The notes: a model not told the origin generated them from the letters alone. Counted from the first letter of the stretch, positions 1,413 to 36,820 are shown. The stretch: DNA of 64,000 nucleotides from Escherichia coli (GCF_001677475.2 NZ_CP015229.1), one strand, 5' to 3'. Translations and numbers: made by a program.

Positions 1413-3812
1413 TCAGATGTTCAGCGGTAACACGCTGCTCATCCAGCCTGGAATTTCTTCGGCGGGCAGGGGGCGGGAAAAGAAATATCCCTGAATAACG
1501 CGACAGTGGATCTTGCGTAGCATCTCAAATTGCTCTTTGGTTTCGACGCCTTCCGCTACGACGGTTAAATTGAGGCTTTGCCCAATGCTGGTAATGGCTT
1601 CGAGTAAGGCAAGGATGCGTTTTTCGGTCAGACAACGATCGACAAAACTTTTGTCAATTTTGATTTCCGTTACCGGAAGACTGACTAAGCGGGATAACCC
1701 GGAAAAGCCCGTGCCAAAATCATCTACCGATAAACCCACGCCCATATCACGCAGGATCTGAATGCGCTTAAAGATTTCGGTATCGTGTTCCATCATCATG
1801 CTTTCTGTGATTTCCACCGTCAGCTGGTGGCCGTCAATACCCCAGGCGTGCATTGCATCAGATACCTGATTAGGCAGCTGATTACTGCGAAAGTGCAGCG
1901 CCGACAAGTTAACGGATAACGCCGGGATATGAATATTCTGGCTACGCCATTCTGCTAACTGACGGCAAGCTTCCGCGATGACCCAGCGCCCAATATTTTC
2001 GATTTCACCAATCTCTTCTGCGAGAGGAATAAATCGTGAAGGGGGCACATGACCATGCAGGGGATCGTGCCAGCGAGCAAGGGCTTCGATGCCGTACAGT
2101 TCACCCGTTTCTGCGAAGATTTGTGGCTGGTAAACCAGTTTCAGTTGGTTATTGCTAATCGCTTCTTTCAGCGCTGCGCCTAAAACCAAACGCTCTTTTA
2201 CCATTTCGTTCATCGCCGGGCTGAAGAACTGCCAGCCGTTACCGCCATTCTTGCGAATATAATCCATTGCATTGTGAGCAGTGGAGAGCAGGTAATCGCG
2301 GTTTTTACCCACGTCGTAGCTGATGCCAATACTCAAGGTAAGCGGGAAGGGTTTATCGTCAATCATTATCGGCTTGCTGACCACATTCCGTAGCTCATCG
2401 GCGATTTGGGTAATGTTACTGACGTCGTTTTCCAGGCTCACGAGGACAAACTGCGTACCTTCGATACGACAGAGATACTGATCCGGTTTGAGTTTTTCAC
2501 GAAAGCGATTGACCACTTCCAGCAATGCCTGATCGGCCCACGCATAGCCAAGGCTATCAATCACATCCTGAATATGGTCAACACCGATGAGATACACCAC
2601 CGGAGAGACGGCTTTGTCGACAAGGTCATCGAGGTAATTGTGCAGGTTATTGCGATTTGGCAGACCGGTCATCGGATCAAATTGGATGAGTTGTTCAATA
2701 TGCTGACGGCTTTTTTCCTGTTCCAGCGCCAGCGCGGCCATATGCTGGCTGATATCTGCCACGCGTTCGATAAAGGCGCTGGTTTCTGCTCCTGACGAGG
2801 TTTTAATTTGCAGGATCCCCGCAGGCGCGCCATCACGCTGACGAATGGTCGCTGACCAGCTTTGCGCATTTTGAACTTCTGCACCGTGCGAAGATGACGC
2901 CCAGTGTATCGGCATCCCGTTGCGCAGTGCGAACAGCGAAACATGCGATTCGTTGAGAACAGATTCGATGTTACGACAAATGATTTCCCCCATTTCATGA
3001 AATGGCGGGCTGCTGCACATGGCGGCGAGAATATTGCCTTCAAGCTGGCGTATTTGTCGTTCTTCGGTGATATCCGAGAAGGTCATTACCAGGTTCTGCA
3101 GATGCGCGAGCACGTCATAAACCGGGCTGATAGAGGCTTTAATCCAGATTTTTTCACCGGTGCGCGTCAACAGCAGAAATTCGTCCTGATCGCGGGCGGT
3201 TTTCCATAGCAACTGTTGTAAACGAATGCGGTTATCGGCAGGGAATTCAGGAATGTTCAGGAGTGTATCGGGCTGCATACCGCTGGCTTCGCTAATGCAG
3301 TAACCAAACATTTCGGTAAATGCGCGATTGCACTGCACAATATGACGTTCCGGATCGAGGACAATCACCGGTCGGTCGAGATGGTCAACGGCAATAATCA
3401 ATTGTCGGGTCTGTTCTTTTTGCGCCATTTCTACGCTGGCATCCCGTACCAGCGCCAGGTAATAAACTTTCCCCTCGGCGCTCACTTTCGATAGCGCAAA
3501 ACGGGTCCAGATTTTACTGCCGTCTTTTTTCTCCAGCTGCAGCTCCCGACTCATCCCCTCAACGCGCGCTTTACCGCCTTCACGGTTATGACGAATGTAT
3601 TCAGGATGCGCGGGACGCAAATCCTGCGGAATCAGCATATCAATGTTATTGCCAATGACTTCTTCACGTTTGTATCCCCAGAGCTTCTCTGCGGCGGGGT
3701 TGAAAAACATCACTTCATCATTTTCGTTAATTAACACCGCACCCATCATATTTTGCTCAAGGGCGGGGAAAAAAATGCCATCGGCGGCATTATCCGCATC
3801 GGTTAGCTTCAT
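1413..3812 (-). CDS. dosP: Oxygen-sensing c-di-GMP phosphodiesterase (haem PAS, GGDEF-EAL)
   Basis: ORF 1413..3836; start trimmed to MKLTDADNAADGIFFPALEQN... (799 aa) as in E. coli DosP; EAL-type C-terminus. Confidence 0.9.
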   Translation of the reverse strand: MKLTDADNAADGIFFPALEQNMMGAVLINENDEVMFFNPAAEKLWGYKREEVIGNNIDMLIPQDLRPAHPEYIRHNREGGKARVEGMSRELQLEKKDGSKIWTRFALSKVSAEGKVYYLALVRDASVEMAQKEQTRQLIIAVDHLDRPVIVLDPERHIVQCNRAFTEMFGYCISEASGMQPDTLLNIPEFPADNRIRLQQLLWKTARDQDEFLLLTRTGEKIWIKASISPVYDVLAHLQNLVMTFSDITEERQIRQLEGNILAAMCSSPPFHEMGEIICRNIESVLNESHVSLFALRNGMPIHWASSSHGAEVQNAQSWSATIRQRDGAPAGILQIKTSSGAETSAFIERVADISQHMAALALEQEKSRQHIEQLIQFDPMTGLPNRNNLHNYLDDLVDKAVSPVVYLIGVDHIQDVIDSLGYAWADQALLEVVNRFREKLKPDQYLCRIEGTQFVLVSLENDVSNITQIADELRNVVSKPIMIDDKPFPLTLSIGISYDVGKNRDYLLSTAHNAMDYIRKNGGNGWQFFSPAMNEMVKERLVLGAALKEAISNNQLKLVYQPQIFAETGELYGIEALARWHDPLHGHVPPSRFIPLAEEIGEIENIGRWVIAEACRQLAEWRSQNIHIPALSVNLSALHFRSNQLPNQVSDAMHAWGIDGHQLTVEITESMMMEHDTEIFKRIQILRDMGVGLSVDDFGTGFSGLSRLVSLPVTEIKIDKSFVDRCLTEKRILALLEAITSIGQSLNLTVVAEGVETKEQFEMLRKIHCRVIQGYFFSRPLPAEEIPGWMSSVLPLNI

Positions 3813-3836: not shown

Positions 3837-5219
3837 CTAAAGACTGGCTTTCCAGAGTTCAACACGGTTTCTACCTCGTCTTTTGGCGATATACAGAGCT
3901 TCATCGGCTATTTGAATGAGGCGCTCATAGTCAGGATGACCATTAAACATGGCGGCACCGATGGAAAGTGAGAGGGCAATATCCTCGCCGTTTGCGGCTT
4001 TCAGTTTGGTTTTCTCCACCCGACTGCGAATACGTTCTGCGGTACGTAACGTTTCGTTTTCCGAAGCTTCAGTCAAAACAATGATAAATTCATCGCCCCC
4101 GTAGCGGAAAACATAATCACTACTGCGGACGTTGTCATAAAAGGCCTGAGAGACTTTACGCAGAATTTCATCGCCAGTGTTATGGCCCCACGTATCGTTG
4201 ATCTCTTTGAATTTATCAACGTCAATAATCAGCACTGACAGCGGTGTACCGGTCCGGTTGGCATGGGCAATTTCGCGTTTGAAAATAGTCGGCAGGAAAC
4301 GGCGGTTAAGTAATTTCGTCAGTACATCCATACCGACTTCGTGGCGCGATACTTCTTCAAACAATTCACGCAGCAAGGTAATAATTTGCGATACGGTATT
4401 TCTTATCTGTAATAAAAATTTCACCCGCAGACTTCTGTTATTCAAATTCCTGGTGTTACGCATGGTTTGATTGAAAATACCGTCGAAATCCTGAATCAGA
4501 CGGGAGATATGGCCCACTTCGGCAATGCCGCTAAAATAATGTCGACCTTTATGGTTAAACCACAGGCCAAAATCAGCCTGGCTTAAAGGCAAACTACTGC
4601 CTAAATCAGAATCCAGCAGGACTTTATAGATAATATCTATTTCCCATGAAAGTAATGAGGCTATTTGCCGTTCTTTTTCTTCTTCGGCATTTTCCAGTAA
4701 CGAGAAGATACGATAGTTTTCATCTTCTTTTGAGGCACTACTGTCACTAAAGGTAAACGCGCGGGTCATCACTTCCATAGCGATATCAATACTGTTAATA
4801 GAGAAATGGTAGACCTGAAGTTTTTCTGCGGCGGAATAATCCGAAGAGAAGATGACCGGATAGAGGATTTTTTTCAGCACCCGAAACCCCATCTCGACAA
4901 TTTCTACCGGAATTCCTATGCGGGCATGCACTTCCGCGACGGTATGCTGGATTTGTATTAGCCTTTCGACATCGTCAACCTGGGCAGAAAGCACGTTAAT
5001 AATCCAGCGTTCCATCGCACTTTTCAACTGCCGCTCAACTTGTTCATTACTCAAGAATTCTTCGGCATGCGGGTCGATACGGACAATTCGGTAAAACTCA
5101 ATACTCAGATAATGGGCATGCGCAACGGCAATTTCCGCGGCTTTAGCACGAATGAGCGGATCTGCTTGTTCGACAAGCCCGGTCCACTCATCTTTCATTC
5201 TTTTAAAATACATCTCCAT
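3837..5219 (-). CDS. dosC: Globin-coupled diguanylate cyclase
   Basis: 460-aa ORF MEMYFKRMKDEWTGLVEQ...; GGDEF motif (YGGDEF) near the C-terminus; directly upstream of dosP (dosCP operon). Confidence 0.9.
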   Translation of the reverse strand: MEMYFKRMKDEWTGLVEQADPLIRAKAAEIAVAHAHYLSIEFYRIVRIDPHAEEFLSNEQVERQLKSAMERWIINVLSAQVDDVERLIQIQHTVAEVHARIGIPVEIVEMGFRVLKKILYPVIFSSDYSAAEKLQVYHFSINSIDIAMEVMTRAFTFSDSSASKEDENYRIFSLLENAEEEKERQIASLLSWEIDIIYKVLLDSDLGSSLPLSQADFGLWFNHKGRHYFSGIAEVGHISRLIQDFDGIFNQTMRNTRNLNNRSLRVKFLLQIRNTVSQIITLLRELFEEVSRHEVGMDVLTKLLNRRFLPTIFKREIAHANRTGTPLSVLIIDVDKFKEINDTWGHNTGDEILRKVSQAFYDNVRSSDYVFRYGGDEFIIVLTEASENETLRTAERIRSRVEKTKLKAANGEDIALSLSIGAAMFNGHPDYERLIQIADEALYIAKRRGRNRVELWKASL

Positions 5220-5595
5220 AATTCACACCCTTATAAGGCTGGGAAAGCAGACGGAATCAAAACGAAACGCAACGTGCGAGATCGACTAACTGCACCATAT
5301 TCTCCTGAAATATGAAGATATACTGAAAACAAATAAGCGACTTAGGACAGTTTCAATCTACGCTACTGTTCTTCAGAAGAGTATAGCCCATCGTAATTAT
5401 TTTTCGGTGACAGCGAATATCGTATGTTTTTTCATATTCATACATTTTTATTAGGGGATTTATGGCTATTTAACTAAGTGTGGTTAATTGCGTGGTGAAT
5501 TTGACTTAAGTAAGCATGATTACTAGTGGGATATTTCAAGAGGGTAGCAAGCCGGTGGGTAAACCACCGGCTTGTCACAAAGTATGAATGGGAGT

Positions 5596-31278: not shown

Positions 31279-31711
31279 AATTCTCCAAAATCTATATTTA
31301 AGTAGCTGAATAAAGAGAGTTAACAATTAAGTCATTCTGTTATTGCTTATAAAACAAGAATCATTCTTGATTGGTTGTTGCCCTGAGAATATAGTTTCCA
31401 GGGTTATTACATTTCACGAAGAACGATAATATCTTTAAATCACAAGGACACCTAATCACAACAAGTTTATTGCTGCACTTGTTGGAGAGAGTATTTGCAA
31501 AAACATTTTATGGCGCTAAATAACATGACGATTTCATTATGCATGTTATTTATAAACCGTGACTAAACAGAATATTATTGCGGACAAGGGAAGTGTCAGG
31601 AAAGGTCAAGAGATACTAATGGTTTATATGGCTATAAATCATTAGTTATGGTTAATGTTTGCCTGGTGTAACTAACACGGAATTGCTCTAAACAGATAAG
31701 TGCAGGGTTTA

Positions 31712-32141: not shown

Positions 32142-32169
32142 ATTTAACATAATATACATTATGCGCACT
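32142..32169. other. dif-like site, left junction (attL): host-like XerD arm, phage-like XerC arm
   Basis: ATTTAACATAA-TATACA-TTATGCGCACT; 27 of 28 identical to the reverse complement of E. coli dif (GGTGCGCATAATGTATATTATGTTAAAT, recalled); the single mismatch is the outermost base of the XerC arm. Confidence 0.85.
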
Positions 32170-32202: not shown

Positions 32203-33066
32203 ATGGCTTGTACTCGTCCTTTGAACGCGTACCAAATGCCATCGGGGAAGATTTTTTTCACGCCGTCACGTGGCGCTAAATTCATTCAGTTGCCCTGTGG
32301 TCAGTGCATCGGTTGCCGTCTTGCTCATTCTCGTGACTGGGCGACCCGCTGCGTTCATGAAGCCCACATGCACGATCACAATTGTTTTATCACTCTGACT
32401 TATTCGCCTGAGAATTTACCTGAAGGCGGTACTCTCGTTCGTAAACATTTCACCGATTTTATGAAGCGTTTGCGTAAGGAATTAGATAAGGATGATGTGA
32501 AAATTCGTTATTTTGGCTGTGGTGAATATGGCTCTAAATTAGAGCGACCGCATTATCATGCGATTATTTTTGGTTATGATTTTCCGGATAAGACACTTTA
32601 TAAAGCGGGAAGATTTAATTTATTTAATTCCCCGCTTCTTTCGAGATGTTGGAATCTTGGTTGGGCTGTTATTGCTGGTTTTAGTTTTGAGTCGGCTGCT
32701 TATGTGGCGCGATACTGTGTTAAAAAAATCAACGGTTTCCGTGCAGATGAGCATTATGGACATCGCCTACCCGAGTTTTCGGCTATGAGTAATCGCCCAG
32801 GTATTGGGTATGATTTTTTTATGACCTATTACGAGGATATTGTTAATGCAGATGCGTGTATTGGTCGTGGCGGTCGTCAGATAAAACCGCCCCGCTATTA
32901 TGACAAGTTATTATCAGGCTGTGATTTGGAAAAGTTGCAGCAGAATAAAGAAAAGCGCCAGTTAAATGCCCGTGTATTAGACCCGTGGCGTTTGCAGGAT
33001 TTGGATAAGTTTAATCTGGTTAAATTCCAGCGAATGATGAGGAAATTAGAAGATGGCTCACTCTGA
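32203..33066 (+). CDS. Replication initiation protein (VP4, rolling-circle HUH endonuclease)
   Basis: Track ORF 32080..33066 trimmed to MACTRPLNAYQ… (287 aa) with GGAGG 6 nt upstream. Rolling-circle motifs: FITLTY, HYHAIIF (HUH), AAYVARYCVKK (catalytic Tyr pair), plus CGQCIGC. Confidence 0.9.
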   Translation: MACTRPLNAYQMPSGKIFFTPSRGAKFIQLPCGQCIGCRLAHSRDWATRCVHEAHMHDHNCFITLTYSPENLPEGGTLVRKHFTDFMKRLRKELDKDDVKIRYFGCGEYGSKLERPHYHAIIFGYDFPDKTLYKAGRFNLFNSPLLSRCWNLGWAVIAGFSFESAAYVARYCVKKINGFRADEHYGHRLPEFSAMSNRPGIGYDFFMTYYEDIVNADACIGRGGRQIKPPRYYDKLLSGCDLEKLQQNKEKRQLNARVLDPWRLQDLDKFNLVKFQRMMRKLEDGSL

Positions 33067-33322
33067 TGCAGTTTATGTAATTCATGACAAGCTGATTGCG
33101 GCTGATGTTTTTATGTTTATGGCCCAGCATGATGGTATTGCGAAAGGCAATTTGCACGCGTTCTGTAACCGTATGCAGCGCACTGACTTTGTGCTGTACC
33201 GTGTGACGGCTTATGACTTTGAAGACCAGCAGCTCGTCCCCGTGGACATTGACCGCGTTTATATTTGCACCGCTTTCCCTGCCATGCTGGAGAATGCCCA
33301 AGATGAAATCCTTGAAGCGTAA
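33053..33322 (+). CDS. Small phage protein, VP5-like
   Basis: 89-aa ORF overlapping the VP4 3' end and the VP3 start; assigned by size and position in the gokushovirus gene order, not by motif. Confidence 0.6.
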   Translation: MAHSDAVYVIHDKLIAADVFMFMAQHDGIAKGNLHAFCNRMQRTDFVLYRVTAYDFEDQQLVPVDIDRVYICTAFPAMLENAQDEILEA

Positions 33323-33815
33323 GTTCCATACCCGCTATGACCCGCCGCCGTCGCCCGGCATCGAGTTCAAAGAACCCACGATGACCCAGCAGCATTTCCG
33401 CGATGAGTGCGACATCAACAAGATTGTTGAGCGTGCGATAAGAACGGGAGATACGACAGTCTTTACCAGTGCTCAACGTGCTGATTTCTACGATGCATCT
33501 TCGATTACTGACTACGTGGACGCAATGGCTTTAATTGACGACGTTAACGACGACTTTAACAGCCTGCCGTCCACGATTCGCTCGATGTTTGGTAATAACG
33601 TTAAGCAGTACGTTGAGTGGATGAGTAATCCCGCGAACTGGAATAAAGCCCGTGAGCTTGGATTGTTGAGCGGCGGAGAGGAGTCGGCGACCGAACGCGC
33701 CAGCGTTCGCGAGTCGAGTCCTGCTCCGGCGTCCCCGCGGGAGCGTGAGCGGACTTCGGAGAGTTCCCCGAAGGGGGAGTCGGAGAAGTCTGCGAATAAT
33801 GATGCAGGCTCATGA
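33303..33815 (+). CDS. Internal scaffolding protein, VP3-like
   Basis: ORF 33213..33815; likely start MKSLKRKFHTRYDPPPSPGIEF… (33303, or 33294); acidic Ser/Glu-rich C-terminus. Assigned by position and size. Confidence 0.6.
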   Translation: MKSLKRKFHTRYDPPPSPGIEFKEPTMTQQHFRDECDINKIVERAIRTGDTTVFTSAQRADFYDASSITDYVDAMALIDDVNDDFNSLPSTIRSMFGNNVKQYVEWMSNPANWNKARELGLLSGGEESATERASVRESSPAPASPRERERTSESSPKGESEKSANNDAGS

Positions 33816-33855
33816 GCTGCATGAAAAAAACCTGAAGACGGCTCCGGCCCTTCAG

Positions 33856-33892
33856 CCTGGCACAGTGGCCCTCTTGATGTAACTGTGCCAGG
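33856..33892 (+). repeat. 11-bp perfect stem-loop in the VP3-VP1 intergenic region
   Basis: cctggcacagt-(15 nt)-actgtgccagg. Confidence 0.8.
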
Positions 33893-33904
33893 TGACACCG
33901 AAAC

Positions 33905-33932
33905 TTACAGGCGGCTCCCACGAAGCCTGTAA
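33905..33932 (+). repeat. 8-bp stem-loop in the VP3-VP1 intergenic region
   Basis: ttacaggc-(12 nt)-gcctgtaa. Confidence 0.75.
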
Positions 33933-33992
33933 AAAGGTGTCAGTTTATACAGTAGTTTGTGTAGTATTTAAACAATTCCCTGAGGGGGGTTT

Positions 33993-35705
33993 ATGAGTAA
34001 ATTCGGTCGTAAAGTACCTAGTAATGCAAAAAGTCAGCATAATTTTTCAGTAATCCCGAGTGCCAATATTCAGCGTTCGGTCTTTAACCGCAGCTCTGGT
34101 TATAAAACCACTTTTGACGCTGGTTATTTGATTCCCGTGTTTCTGGATGAGGCTTTGCCGGGTGATACATTCCACCTGAAAACGTCCATACTGGCGCGTT
34201 TATCCACGCCAGTGGTGCCGTTTATGGATAACCTGCGACTGGACATCCAGTATTTTTCCGTGCCCTACCGTCTGGTCTGGGATAACTGGCAGAAATTCAA
34301 CGGTGAACAGAAGAATCCTGGCGATTCGACGGATTACCTTATTCCGCAGATTAAAGCCCCTGCTGGCGGCTTCCCTGTAGGCTCCCTTGCCGATTATTTT
34401 GGTGTTCCCACAGGTGTGGAGAATATCAGTGTAAGCGCCCTGCCGTTCCGCGCTTATAACCTGATTTATAACGAGTGGTATCGTGATGAAAACCTGATTA
34501 ATTCCGCCCCGCTTCCGCTTGGCGATGAGGAAGAAACAGGCCTCGCCAATTTCCCGCTGCGTAAGCGTGCCAAGCGTCACGATTACTTCACAAGTGCTCT
34601 GCCGTGGCCTCAGAAGGGTGAAGGCGTTGAGATTGGTTTAGGCGTTCCGCCGTCGTATACGCTCGATTTCCCGACCTATCCTGATGGTCTGCCGTTTGTT
34701 TCTTATGGCGTTGGTGTCGATGGAGATATGACTTCGCACAATCCGACTTATCTTGCCCGTAATAATGTTAACGAAGGCTCATCATACGAGGCCTATGGTA
34801 ATGCGGTTTATATGAGTGACGGCAGGAATCCCAGCAATCCGCTGGAATGGCCTCCTATGTCGCCCTCCACTGGACGTATTGATGTTATTGGTGGTTTTAG
34901 CAGAAACCAGCCTCCGGTTACGTTAAATAAGCAAGGTGGTGAAGTTGTCGATAATCTGACAATTAACTCGCTGCGTCAGGCGTTCCAGCTTCAGCGGCTG
35001 CTTGAGCGCGATGCTCGCGGTGGTACTCGCTATATTGAGATTATCCGCTCCCACTTTGGCGTTATTTCGCCTGATGCCCGTGTACAGCGTCCCGAGTATC
35101 TCGGCTCTGGTTCATTCGACATAAATATTAATCCTGTTCTTCAAAACTCCGCGACGACCGACGCAAGTCCGCAAGGCAACCTCGCGGCCTATGGTGTCTC
35201 CGGTGGTGTTAACCGTGGATTTTCTCATTCTTTTGTGGAGCACTGTTTTGTTATTGGCCTTGTTAGCGTTCGTGCTGACCTGACCTACCAGCAAGGCATC
35301 CCGCGCATGTTCTCCCGCCAGACCCGCTTTGATTTCTACTGGCCTGCACTGGCTCACCTGGGCGAACAGGCTATCCTTAACAAGGAGATTTACGCGCAAG
35401 GCAACGACAAGGATGATGAAGTATTTGGCTACCAGGAACGTTACGCGGAGTACCGCTACCGACCGTCTCAGATTACTGGTAAATTGCGTTCTACCGACCC
35501 GCAATCCCTCGATGTGTGGCATTTAGCCCAGCGGTTCGACTCTCTGCCCGCACTGAATCAGGAGTTTATCGAGGAGAATCCACCGATGAAGCGCGTCCTC
35601 GCCGTACAGGACGAGCCTCAGTTCATCATGGATGCGTTCTTCGACCTGAAGTGTGTGCGGCCTATGCCTGTTTACTCAGTACCAGGTCTTATCGATCATT
35701 TCTAA
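33993..35705 (+). CDS. Major capsid protein (VP1, Microviridae F-protein family)
   Basis: 570-aa ORF MSKFGRKVPSNAKSQHNFSVIPSANIQRSVFNRSSGYKTTFDAGYLIPVFLDEALPGDTF…, closely resembling the conserved N-terminal block of gokushovirus VP1 (recalled Chlamydia-phage pattern …IQRS.F.RS.G.KTTFDAGYLIP…PGDTF…); RBS GAGGGGGG. Confidence 0.9.
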   Translation: MSKFGRKVPSNAKSQHNFSVIPSANIQRSVFNRSSGYKTTFDAGYLIPVFLDEALPGDTFHLKTSILARLSTPVVPFMDNLRLDIQYFSVPYRLVWDNWQKFNGEQKNPGDSTDYLIPQIKAPAGGFPVGSLADYFGVPTGVENISVSALPFRAYNLIYNEWYRDENLINSAPLPLGDEEETGLANFPLRKRAKRHDYFTSALPWPQKGEGVEIGLGVPPSYTLDFPTYPDGLPFVSYGVGVDGDMTSHNPTYLARNNVNEGSSYEAYGNAVYMSDGRNPSNPLEWPPMSPSTGRIDVIGGFSRNQPPVTLNKQGGEVVDNLTINSLRQAFQLQRLLERDARGGTRYIEIIRSHFGVISPDARVQRPEYLGSGSFDININPVLQNSATTDASPQGNLAAYGVSGGVNRGFSHSFVEHCFVIGLVSVRADLTYQQGIPRMFSRQTRFDFYWPALAHLGEQAILNKEIYAQGNDKDDEVFGYQERYAEYRYRPSQITGKLRSTDPQSLDVWHLAQRFDSLPALNQEFIEENPPMKRVLAVQDEPQFIMDAFFDLKCVRPMPVYSVPGLIDHF

Positions 35706-36543: not shown

Positions 36544-36663
36544 ATGGCTCGTTCTCGCCGTCGTATGTCCAAGCGTTCTTCCCGTCGTTCGTTCCGTAAG
36601 TACGCAAAGACGCATAAACGTAACTTTAAAGCCCGCTCTATGCGTGGTGGAATTCGTCTTTGA
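36544..36663 (+). CDS. Small basic DNA-binding protein (VP8 / J-like), absent from the ORF track
   Basis: ATG at 36544, stop TGA 36661..36663; translation MARSRRRMSKRSSRRSFRKYAKTHKRNFKARSMRGGIRL (39 aa, roughly 40% Arg/Lys). Confidence 0.7.
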   Translation: MARSRRRMSKRSSRRSFRKYAKTHKRNFKARSMRGGIRL

Positions 36664-36716: not shown

Positions 36717-36744
36717 GTTAAACTAAATATACATTATGCGCACC
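36717..36744. other. dif-like site, right junction (attR): phage-like degenerate XerD arm, host-like XerC arm
   Basis: GTTAAACTAAA-TATACA-TTATGCGCACC; XerD arm 7 of 11, central region 6 of 6, XerC arm 11 of 11 versus dif. Confidence 0.8.
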
Positions 36745-36820
36745 AACATAAACCAAGGGAGAATCCAGTCGTTGGCGGTCATGATTGTCCTGCTCATTAA
36801 CAACGGCCAAACCCCATATC

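Follow-up and report, generated by a model that had tools for sequence, protein, structure and literature searches.

A conserved hairpin element between VP3 and VP1 of an integrated Enterogokushovirus is the probable viral-strand replication origin of gokushoviruses

We analyzed a stretch of 64,000 nucleotides of Escherichia coli DNA (GCF_001677475.2, NZ_CP015229.1), referred to below as the window, which contained an integrated Enterogokushovirus with 87.8% nucleotide identity to Escherichia phage EC6098. The prophage genes are arranged on the + strand in the order VP4, VP5, VP3, a 177-nt gap (33816-33992), VP1, VP2, and VP8 (Table 1). The other gaps inside the prophage measured 54 nt (VP1-VP2) and ~80 nt (VP8 to dif), indicating that the VP3-VP1 gap is indeed the only sizeable non-coding stretch of the prophage, as a preliminary description of this DNA had stated. 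The left end of the prophage is a host dif site. This match was unique within the window, and EC6098 annotates a dif-motif at the equivalent place. A dif-like half was observed near 36722-36745, adjoining hipA, and the E. coli prophages L003-L008 share this setting. VP3 is 200 aa long in the window compared to 165-170 aa in EC6098 and E. coli prophages, and conservation within the left half of the prophage was lowest across the VP3 3′ end and the start of the gap (33730-33849), where it was 48-63% in a comparison with 12 relatives. Within VP1, the stretch 34690-34930 showed 12-38% conservation and was nearly unalignable among close relatives; it coincides with the VP1 loop that has been described as hypervariable in gokushoviruses (PMC7062461). 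Outside the prophage, ~0.5 kb upstream of dif, the host flank carried two strong inverted repeats (31517-31552 and 31615-31646), one a perfect 11 bp and the other 14 nt with 93% complementarity.

Table 1. Positions of the genes and sequence elements discussed, numbered from the first nucleotide of the window.
Feature	Position	Strand	Basis
Host dif site, left end of the prophage	32142-32169	-	27/28 match to E. coli dif
VP4, rolling-circle Rep, presumed to act on the origin	32203-33066	+	Pfam PF23343, motifs, length
VP3 scaffolding gene, stop codon just 5′ of the hairpin array	33213-33815	+	ORF list
Three-hairpin array H1-H2-H3, closed by AAAC/GTTT	33828-33946	+	MFE = centroid, -30.8 kcal/mol, z = -6.05
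Closing helix, 4 bp (AAAC with GTTT)	33828-33831 with 33943-33946	+	
H1, upstream accessory hairpin (CTGAAG/CTTCAG plus GGC/GCC)	33832-33855	+	Fold, compensatory changes
H2, candidate origin hairpin (11-bp stem, 15-nt loop GGCCCTCTTGATGTA)	33856-33892	+	Covariance model R1, 60.1 bits
CTTGAT loop core, predicted VP4 nick G33876/A33877	33873-33878	+	phiX174 analogy
TGACACC box, candidate Rep-binding site, also 5′ arm of the H3 outer stem	33893-33899	+	
H3, two-tier hairpin (outer TGACACC/GGTGTCA, inner TTACAGGC/GCCTGTAA, loop GGCTCCCACGAA)	33893-33942	+	Fold
H3 outer stem, 7 bp (TGACACC with GGTGTCA)	33893-33899 with 33936-33942	+	
Shine-Dalgarno sequence GAGGGGGG and VP1 start codon	33982-33995	+	Read off the sequence; genus-conserved
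VP1 capsid gene	33993-35705	+	
VP8	36544-36663	+	

Folding of the 177-nt gap gave z = -4.6 for the + DNA strand, -4.3 for the - DNA strand, and -5.6 for RNA, and none of 200 shuffles folded as well; a 123-nt core reached z = -6.05. Two stem-loops had been described here previously, and both were present. The 11-bp arm CCTGGCACAGT (33856-33866) was perfectly complementary to ACTGTGCCAGG (33882-33892) across a 15-nt loop, and the 8-bp arm TTACAGGC (33905-33912) paired with GCCTGTAA (33925-33932) across a 12-nt loop. However, the count of two fell short, as the array consists of three hairpins, H1, H2, and H3, which are directly adjacent to each other with zero spacer between them. Beyond the first reading, the fold added H1, a 7-bp outer stem that encloses the 8-bp hairpin, and a 4-bp closing helix. 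We estimate that ~0.06 perfect 11-bp inverted repeats with loops of up to 60 nt would occur by chance in a 4.6-kb genome. For 8-bp inverted repeats, ~4 were expected by chance and seven were found in 5.7 kb, so the 8-bp stem is not significant by itself, and the weight of this hairpin rests on its enclosing stem and its conservation. The heptamer CGGCTCC occurred in the apical parts of both H1 (33839-33845) and H3 (33912-33918), both copies being conserved in the genus except for one G-to-T change in strain E9; the pair could be a protein-binding repeat or a coincidence. A CCC...GGG hairpin sequestering the Shine-Dalgarno sequence in the RNA fold was rejected, as its loops were too small and the pattern of T/A indels breaks the pairing.

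The distribution of H2 was then analyzed in metagenomic and genomic sequences. The 27-mer CTTGATGTAACTGTGCCAGGTGACACC, which covers the box, the 3′ arm, and half of the loop (its 3′ half), was found exactly in 21 IMG/VR contigs, whose flanks were mostly unrelated to the window. The pattern CTTGATGTA-N8-AGGTGACACC, in which the eight 3′-arm bases were freed and the 5′ arm lay outside the pattern, matched at least 120 IMG/VR contigs. Among the matches listed, N8 took ten forms, and a complementary 5′ arm was present upstream every time. In 108 distinct motif-selected sequences, 90.3% of the cells were paired compared to 80.8% in shuffled alignments (0 of 500 shuffles reached the observed value), and two-sided changes were observed in 57 cells against 10.3 expected. 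When the partner columns were slid as a control, pairing was 20-37%. The invariance of CTTGATGTA in these 108 sequences proves nothing because the search pattern had fixed it.

A motif-independent sample was obtained from the best 80 loci of a capsid-protein search, 79 of which were new, and searched with a 47-position covariance model. As a result, 59 of the 79 contigs matched the model at E <= 1e-3. The element lay on the gene strand in 57 of these 59 genomes and in 135 of 139 loci (~97%). The capsid-selected alignment, which was fitted to the model and therefore leans towards structure, showed 93.7% pairing compared to 69.8% after shuffling, with compensatory changes at all 8 stem pairs. 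A hairpin scan detected a CTTG-loop hairpin followed by a (C)TGACA-type box or an A-rich tail in six of nine contigs lacking a model match, and three weak model matches likewise carried a CTTG-loop hairpin with a TGAC box or an A-rich tail. An H2-type element was thus present in at least 68 of the 79 capsid-selected contigs, divergent stems included. The conserved parts in this sample were the loop core YTNCTTG(A/T)T and the TGACACC box located 3 nt after the stem, the box being found in nearly all matches. Covariation of the H2 stem extended over more than 180 genomes, and on the 64-kb window, model R1 returned H2 as the sole strong match (60.1 bits, E = 1.3e-14). The preliminary description had staked its stems on compensatory changes among relatives, and such changes were found at all 8 modelled pairs of H2; two independent compensatory swaps in H1 within the genus likewise speak against non-conservation. 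H2 is almost certainly a conserved, structured cis element.

Related elements were also observed in more distant phages. In Chlamydia phage Chp2, the post-VP3 gap contained a 13-bp stem with the 10-nt loop TCTACTTGAT, followed by AGGTGA, and TGATAGC was found instead of TGACACC. Bdellovibrio phage phiMH2K showed a looser likeness, with an 11-bp stem and a loop ending in CTACTTGTTGTAA, without the TGACACC box. SpV4 retained the spacing ACTTGAT-N11-AGGTGA without an enclosing stem, and the covariance model gave no match there. In EC6098, TGACACC occurs only twice, as the box and as its inverted copy in H3, and some lineages showed a direct GTCACC repeat downstream of H2. The same 27-mer was found in a gokushovirus prophage of Intestinirhabdus alba BIT-B35 (L235, NZ_WMJZ01000007.1, motif 5355-5381), which was the sole match when 100,044 species, each represented by a single genome, were scanned. 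Several IMG/VR contigs of 5.8-9.3 kb (L012, L015, L018, L019, L025, and L147) carried two slightly different copies of the motif approximately one genome length apart, possibly because co-occurring strains were assembled into concatemers or chimeras.

The position of the element relative to the genes was conserved as well. Searches by tblastn placed VP3 immediately 5′ of the element in nearly all loci irrespective of gene order. The cassette resembled a movable unit in that it stayed linked to VP3 while other gene blocks permuted and was flipped in place in ~3% of genomes. With the element marked as ori, the order is VP4-VP5-VP3-ori-VP1-VP2-VP8 in Enterogokushovirus, compared to ori-small basic ORF-VP4-...-VP1-VP2-VP3 in most gokushoviruses, as seen when the window was compared with loci L009-L147. 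The linkage between VP3 and the putative origin is kept in both orders, indicating that the rearrangement breakpoints flank this module.

Next, we compared the element with the viral-strand origin of phiX174. In the phiX174 record, CAACTTG/ATATTAATAAC (the slash marks the nick) carries the annotation "origin of viral strand synthesis" at A4306, so that the nick falls between G4305 and A4306. The heptamer ACTTGAT occurs a single time in phiX174, counting both strands, at the annotated rep_origin, and once in EC6098, in the H2 loop. The consensus loop CTACTTGAT has ACTTGAT in common with phiX174, and the loop in the window contains TCTTGAT, which matches at 6 of 7 positions. We calculated the chance of a given heptamer falling within a 15-nt loop as ~5e-4. 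The product of VP4 matched Pfam PF23343 (REP_ORF2-G2P) at E = 1.3e-21, with a weak Phage_GPA match, and its translation contained the HUH motif HYHAIIF and the two-tyrosine (YxxxY) motif YVARY. The gene, at 864 nt, is as long as the one that RefSeq names "rolling circle replication-associated protein" in prophages of E. coli. In pC194-family plasmids, which use Rep_1, the nick lies at CTTGATA (PMC10378824), and in phiX-type origins, the nick site and the bind site are separate (PMC5714925); by analogy, the TGACACC box would be a candidate bind site. The loop and the box are shared by phages whose known hosts include Chlamydia and Enterobacteriaceae, suggesting that they are recognized by the phage Rep, which is conserved, more probably than by priming factors of the host.

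We propose that H2 together with the TGACACC box is probably the viral-strand (rolling-circle) origin, nicked at CTTG/AT, with the cut predicted from the phiX174 analogy between G33876 and A33877. The Rep nicking site, which the preliminary description had not located, is then probably H2 itself, with the CTTGAT loop (consensus ACTTGAT) corresponding to the phiX174 nick heptamer and the box lying 3′ of it. That description had rightly seen a functional structured element here, but its candidate functions (complementary-strand origin, packaging, and mRNA stability) did not include the one best supported for H2. Several observations weigh against the origin assignment. The predicted nick position depends on 6-7 nt of identity to phiX174; in ungapped 30-mers, H2 and phiX174 were identical at 17 of 30 positions, and the AT-rich spacer of phiX174 was absent. 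The box lies 14 nt after the CTTGAT core, separated from it by a GC-containing arm of the stem, and is unlike the phiX174 sequence. The window itself has TCTTGAT in place of ACTTGAT, the box is missing from phiMH2K and replaced by TGATAGC in Chp2, and SpV4 has no stem around the motif; the phiX174 origin, for its part, sits within gene A outside any hairpin. In addition, a conserved hairpin on the packaged strand is equally compatible with a complementary-strand origin. Finally, the packaging of an antisense strand, which is implied by six inverted cases considered below, has to our knowledge never been reported for Microviridae.

If H2 is the viral-strand origin, the gap would serve as the cis-acting replication region of the integrated Enterogokushovirus. 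VP4, as a two-tyrosine HUH Rep, would bind the TGACACC box on the supercoiled double-stranded replicative form, and the inverted repeat may expose the H2 loop as single-stranded DNA through cruciform extrusion. VP4 would then cut CTTG/AT at the predicted G33876/A33877 junction and become covalently joined to the 5′ end, with a host polymerase extending the 3′-OH. After one round, the hairpin would be regenerated, cut, and ligated, so that a circular viral strand is released and can be packaged.

The two accessory hairpins that abut H2, H1 and H3, are clade-specific; their positions are conserved but their sequences are not. Within the genus, the core 33828-33960 was 94% conserved, compared to a genome mean of 83% and 97% in the best coding stretch; to place the gap far above coding sequence in conservation would thus be an overstatement. 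Exact-pattern scans of metagenomes and genomes yielded only 5 further loci for the within-genus comparison of H1 and H3. The compensatory swaps in H1 were A-T to C-G (EcC5, L021, and L029) and C-G to A-T (tcmA_3). The inner stem of H3 was kept in C41, EcC5, and E9 via a register shift, in which GT changed to TG and T to C, with a bulged C. In L235, L022, and L152, the H1 position was occupied by a hairpin of unrelated sequence, and an equivalent of the H3 outer stem was found in these three and in several distant lineages. Two more distant relatives, the prophage L235 and contig L022 (the latter with a VP1 of 61% identity), had unrelated H1 and H3 sequences and kept three abutting hairpins (z = -4.3 to -4.6). 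At the H1 position, the hairpins of L152 (~1720-1760) and L235 (~5310-5345) had the loop AAGCGATGCATAAAG in common, with wholly different stems (CCTGCAACT/AGTTGCAGG and ACCCGAAA/TTTCGGGT, respectively). This loop contains AGCGAT, which is similar to the CS-6 motif TAGCGA/T of plasmid single-strand origins (sso) (PMC10378824).

Flanking structure was then examined in the capsid-selected sample. The 40 nt upstream of H2 ranked at or below the 5th percentile of same-genome windows in 29% of genomes and at or below the 20th percentile in 59%. The 45 nt downstream did so in 12% and 29%, respectively, showing no enrichment, and the former figure gave no support to a general downstream hairpin in gokushoviruses. 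H1-like hairpins upstream of H2 are therefore common, whereas H3 is clade-specific. The foremost candidate roles of H1 and H3 are complementary-strand priming and a function in forming the 3′ end of the VP3 mRNA; the former is attractive because clade-specific parts are expected to adapt to the host.

The array follows the VP3 stop codon, precedes the VP1 ribosome-binding site, and lies in a gap that folds at z = -5.6 as RNA, which would suit an RNA element that forms the 3′ end of a VP4-VP5-VP3 transcript, terminates or stabilizes it, or acts as a leader for VP1 translation. GC-rich hairpins are common after VP3, and in several distant lineages, a TGACACC...GGTGTC hairpin is followed by a T-run, resembling an intrinsic terminator. 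However, scanning of 33816-33992 called no intrinsic terminator and no sigma-70 promoter, and by eye, no -35/-10 pair with acceptable spacing was seen upstream of VP1. The loops of 12-15 nt are outside the 3-8 nt of intrinsic terminators, no T-run follows H1 or H2, and H3 is followed by GTTTAT only. Termination would, moreover, have no need of an invariant loop and box. A scan of the prophage against Rfam 15 at E <= 10 gave no match in the gap and only chance snoRNA-like matches elsewhere. The H2 stem was ~93% Watson-Crick, and G.U pairs were not favoured: G.T mismatches were not in excess over A.C (9 versus 5 and 7 versus 10), counts that say nothing of which strand folds. In six contigs (L048, L049, L065, L067, L174 at 3441-3489, and L198 at 4257-4304), the cassette was inverted relative to all genes; it occupied the usual VP3-VP4 gap and retained the loop and box sequence on the DNA strand. 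The in-place inversion, the Watson-Crick stem, and the lack of a terminator or promoter favour DNA over RNA, so that a DNA-level signal is the best reading, and we regard an RNA function of the array as very unlikely. If the element sets the displaced and packaged strand, the six inverted-cassette phages would package the antisense strand. A conserved element on one strand, the gene strand in ~97% of genomes, might also be a signal for packaging or condensation, apart from the nick site and bound by VP8 (a DNA-binding protein) or VP5, and the inverted TGACACC pair could suit a dimeric binder. Yet VP8 and VP5 are poorly conserved (VP5 was found by tblastn in 4 of 139 loci), in contrast to the nearly universal element, and the phiX-like nick heptamer would be left unexplained. 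We know of no separate pac site in phiX174, where packaging is coupled to origin-dependent strand displacement, and we consider such a signal highly improbable.

Every microvirus needs a start site for its complementary strand, and three adjacent stable intergenic hairpins resemble the layout of the G4 ori-c. The whole array, H2 included, might be a complementary-strand (minus) origin. On the single-stranded genome that enters the cell, hairpins free of SSB would then recruit host primase, RNA polymerase, or the PriA primosome and so start conversion to duplex DNA, as ssi elements do in G4 and phiX174 and sso elements do in plasmids. The array has a strong fold as single-stranded DNA, and hairpins abutting H2 upstream are enriched across gokushoviruses. 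Moreover, conserved hairpins in other microvirus clades have tentatively been given such a role (PMC9865509), and the H1-position loops of L152 and L235 contain AGCGAT, similar to CS-6 of plasmid sso (PMC10378824). Sites for host factors should, however, vary by host, whereas the loop of H2 and the box do not differ between phages that have Chlamydia and Enterobacteriaceae among their known hosts. The loop heptamer is also the nick heptamer of the homologous phiX174 Rep, which priming would not require, and it is H1 and H3, as opposed to H2, that appear specific to a host or clade. A minus origin comprising the whole array is therefore unlikely. When confined to H1 and H3, a minus origin is a tentative option, which we regard as possible but doubtful. 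A compact combined origin, in which H2 and the box form the Rep nick and bind site, H1 and H3 form a host-adapted complementary-strand priming site, and flipped cassettes reflect negative-sense packaging, is rather unlikely in that full form; if it were true, the flipped-cassette gokushoviruses would be the first negative-sense microviruses.

As the probable viral-strand origin, H2 with its box can be compared to several known systems. In phiX174 and G4 (Bullavirinae), the gene A protein, which is a homologous HUH Rep with two tyrosines, cuts the origin at the conserved 30-nt sequence CAACTTG/ATATTAATAACACTATAGACCAC. Shared features are the ACTTGAT nick heptamer on the viral (gene-sense) strand, unique in the genome, and a two-part layout in which the nick is followed 11-14 nt later by a presumed binding sequence (PMC5714925). 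The phiX174 origin, however, lies inside gene A without an enclosing inverted repeat and has an AT-rich spacer, whereas the gokushovirus element is intergenic and carries the nick motif in a hairpin loop. Its spacer is the covarying 3′ stem arm, and its box is TGACACC in place of the phiX174 key sequence. The double-strand origins of pC194 and pUB110 (Rep_1) similarly have the CTTGAT nick core (PMC10378824), an HUH Rep, and a nick near an inverted repeat; they differ in belonging to plasmids, in having Rep_1 PF01446 (PMC5714925) as opposed to PF23343 in VP4, and in lacking the TGACACC box.

CRESS-DNA viruses (geminiviruses, circoviruses, and nanoviruses) have an intergenic covarying stem, an invariant nick loop, and a nearby Rep-binding repeat, for which the box is the candidate here. 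Their loop is a nonanucleotide of the TAATATT/AC type, and their Rep has one tyrosine and is fused to an SF3 helicase. As for iterons, the genus has a single TGACACC box and one inverted copy. The likeness to CRESS origins is an analogy, not homology. The ssi of G4 (three stem-loops, DnaG) and that of phiX174 (a PriA n′ hairpin in the F-G gap) resemble the array as clustered hairpins beside the capsid gene. They have no sequence similarity to it, such sites have no known consensus sequence, and the conservation of H2 across hosts would be unexpected for a host-factor site; by analogy, these ssi elements are a possible model for H1 and H3. Hairpins in the reekeekee- and roodoodoo-microviruses likewise have a conserved loop, compensatory stems, and an intergenic position beside Rep (Olo Ndela et al. 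2022, PMC9865509). They belong to other clades, and their authors, who leaned to negative-strand initiation, reported no phiX-like nick motif (PMC9865509).

The full-text literature that we searched contained no description of a gokushovirus origin or hairpin; older papers on Chp1, Chp2, SpV4, and phiMH2K lay outside its coverage, so an earlier description is possible. The main comparative gokushovirus papers do not mention an origin, and searching the literature with sequence words (CTTGATGTA and similar) returned primers only. The kind of element, a rolling-circle origin, is already known, and the gokushovirus example is new as far as searched. In viromes of the gut and the environment, gokushoviruses rank with the most abundant ssDNA phages, and a replication origin for them would fill a gap in a major phage group. 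It would provide a nick site that is testable in EC6098, the one culturable E. coli gokushovirus, and a minimal cis element for building gokushovirus phagemids or replicons. The 47-nt covariance model offers a compact marker for gokushoviruses and their prophages. The origin would also give a natural zero coordinate and a strand definition to thousands of metagenomic genomes that are now linearised arbitrarily at VP1. Finally, it would join the CTTG/AT nick chemistry of phiX174 and pC194 with the hairpin-loop architecture of other HUH origins.
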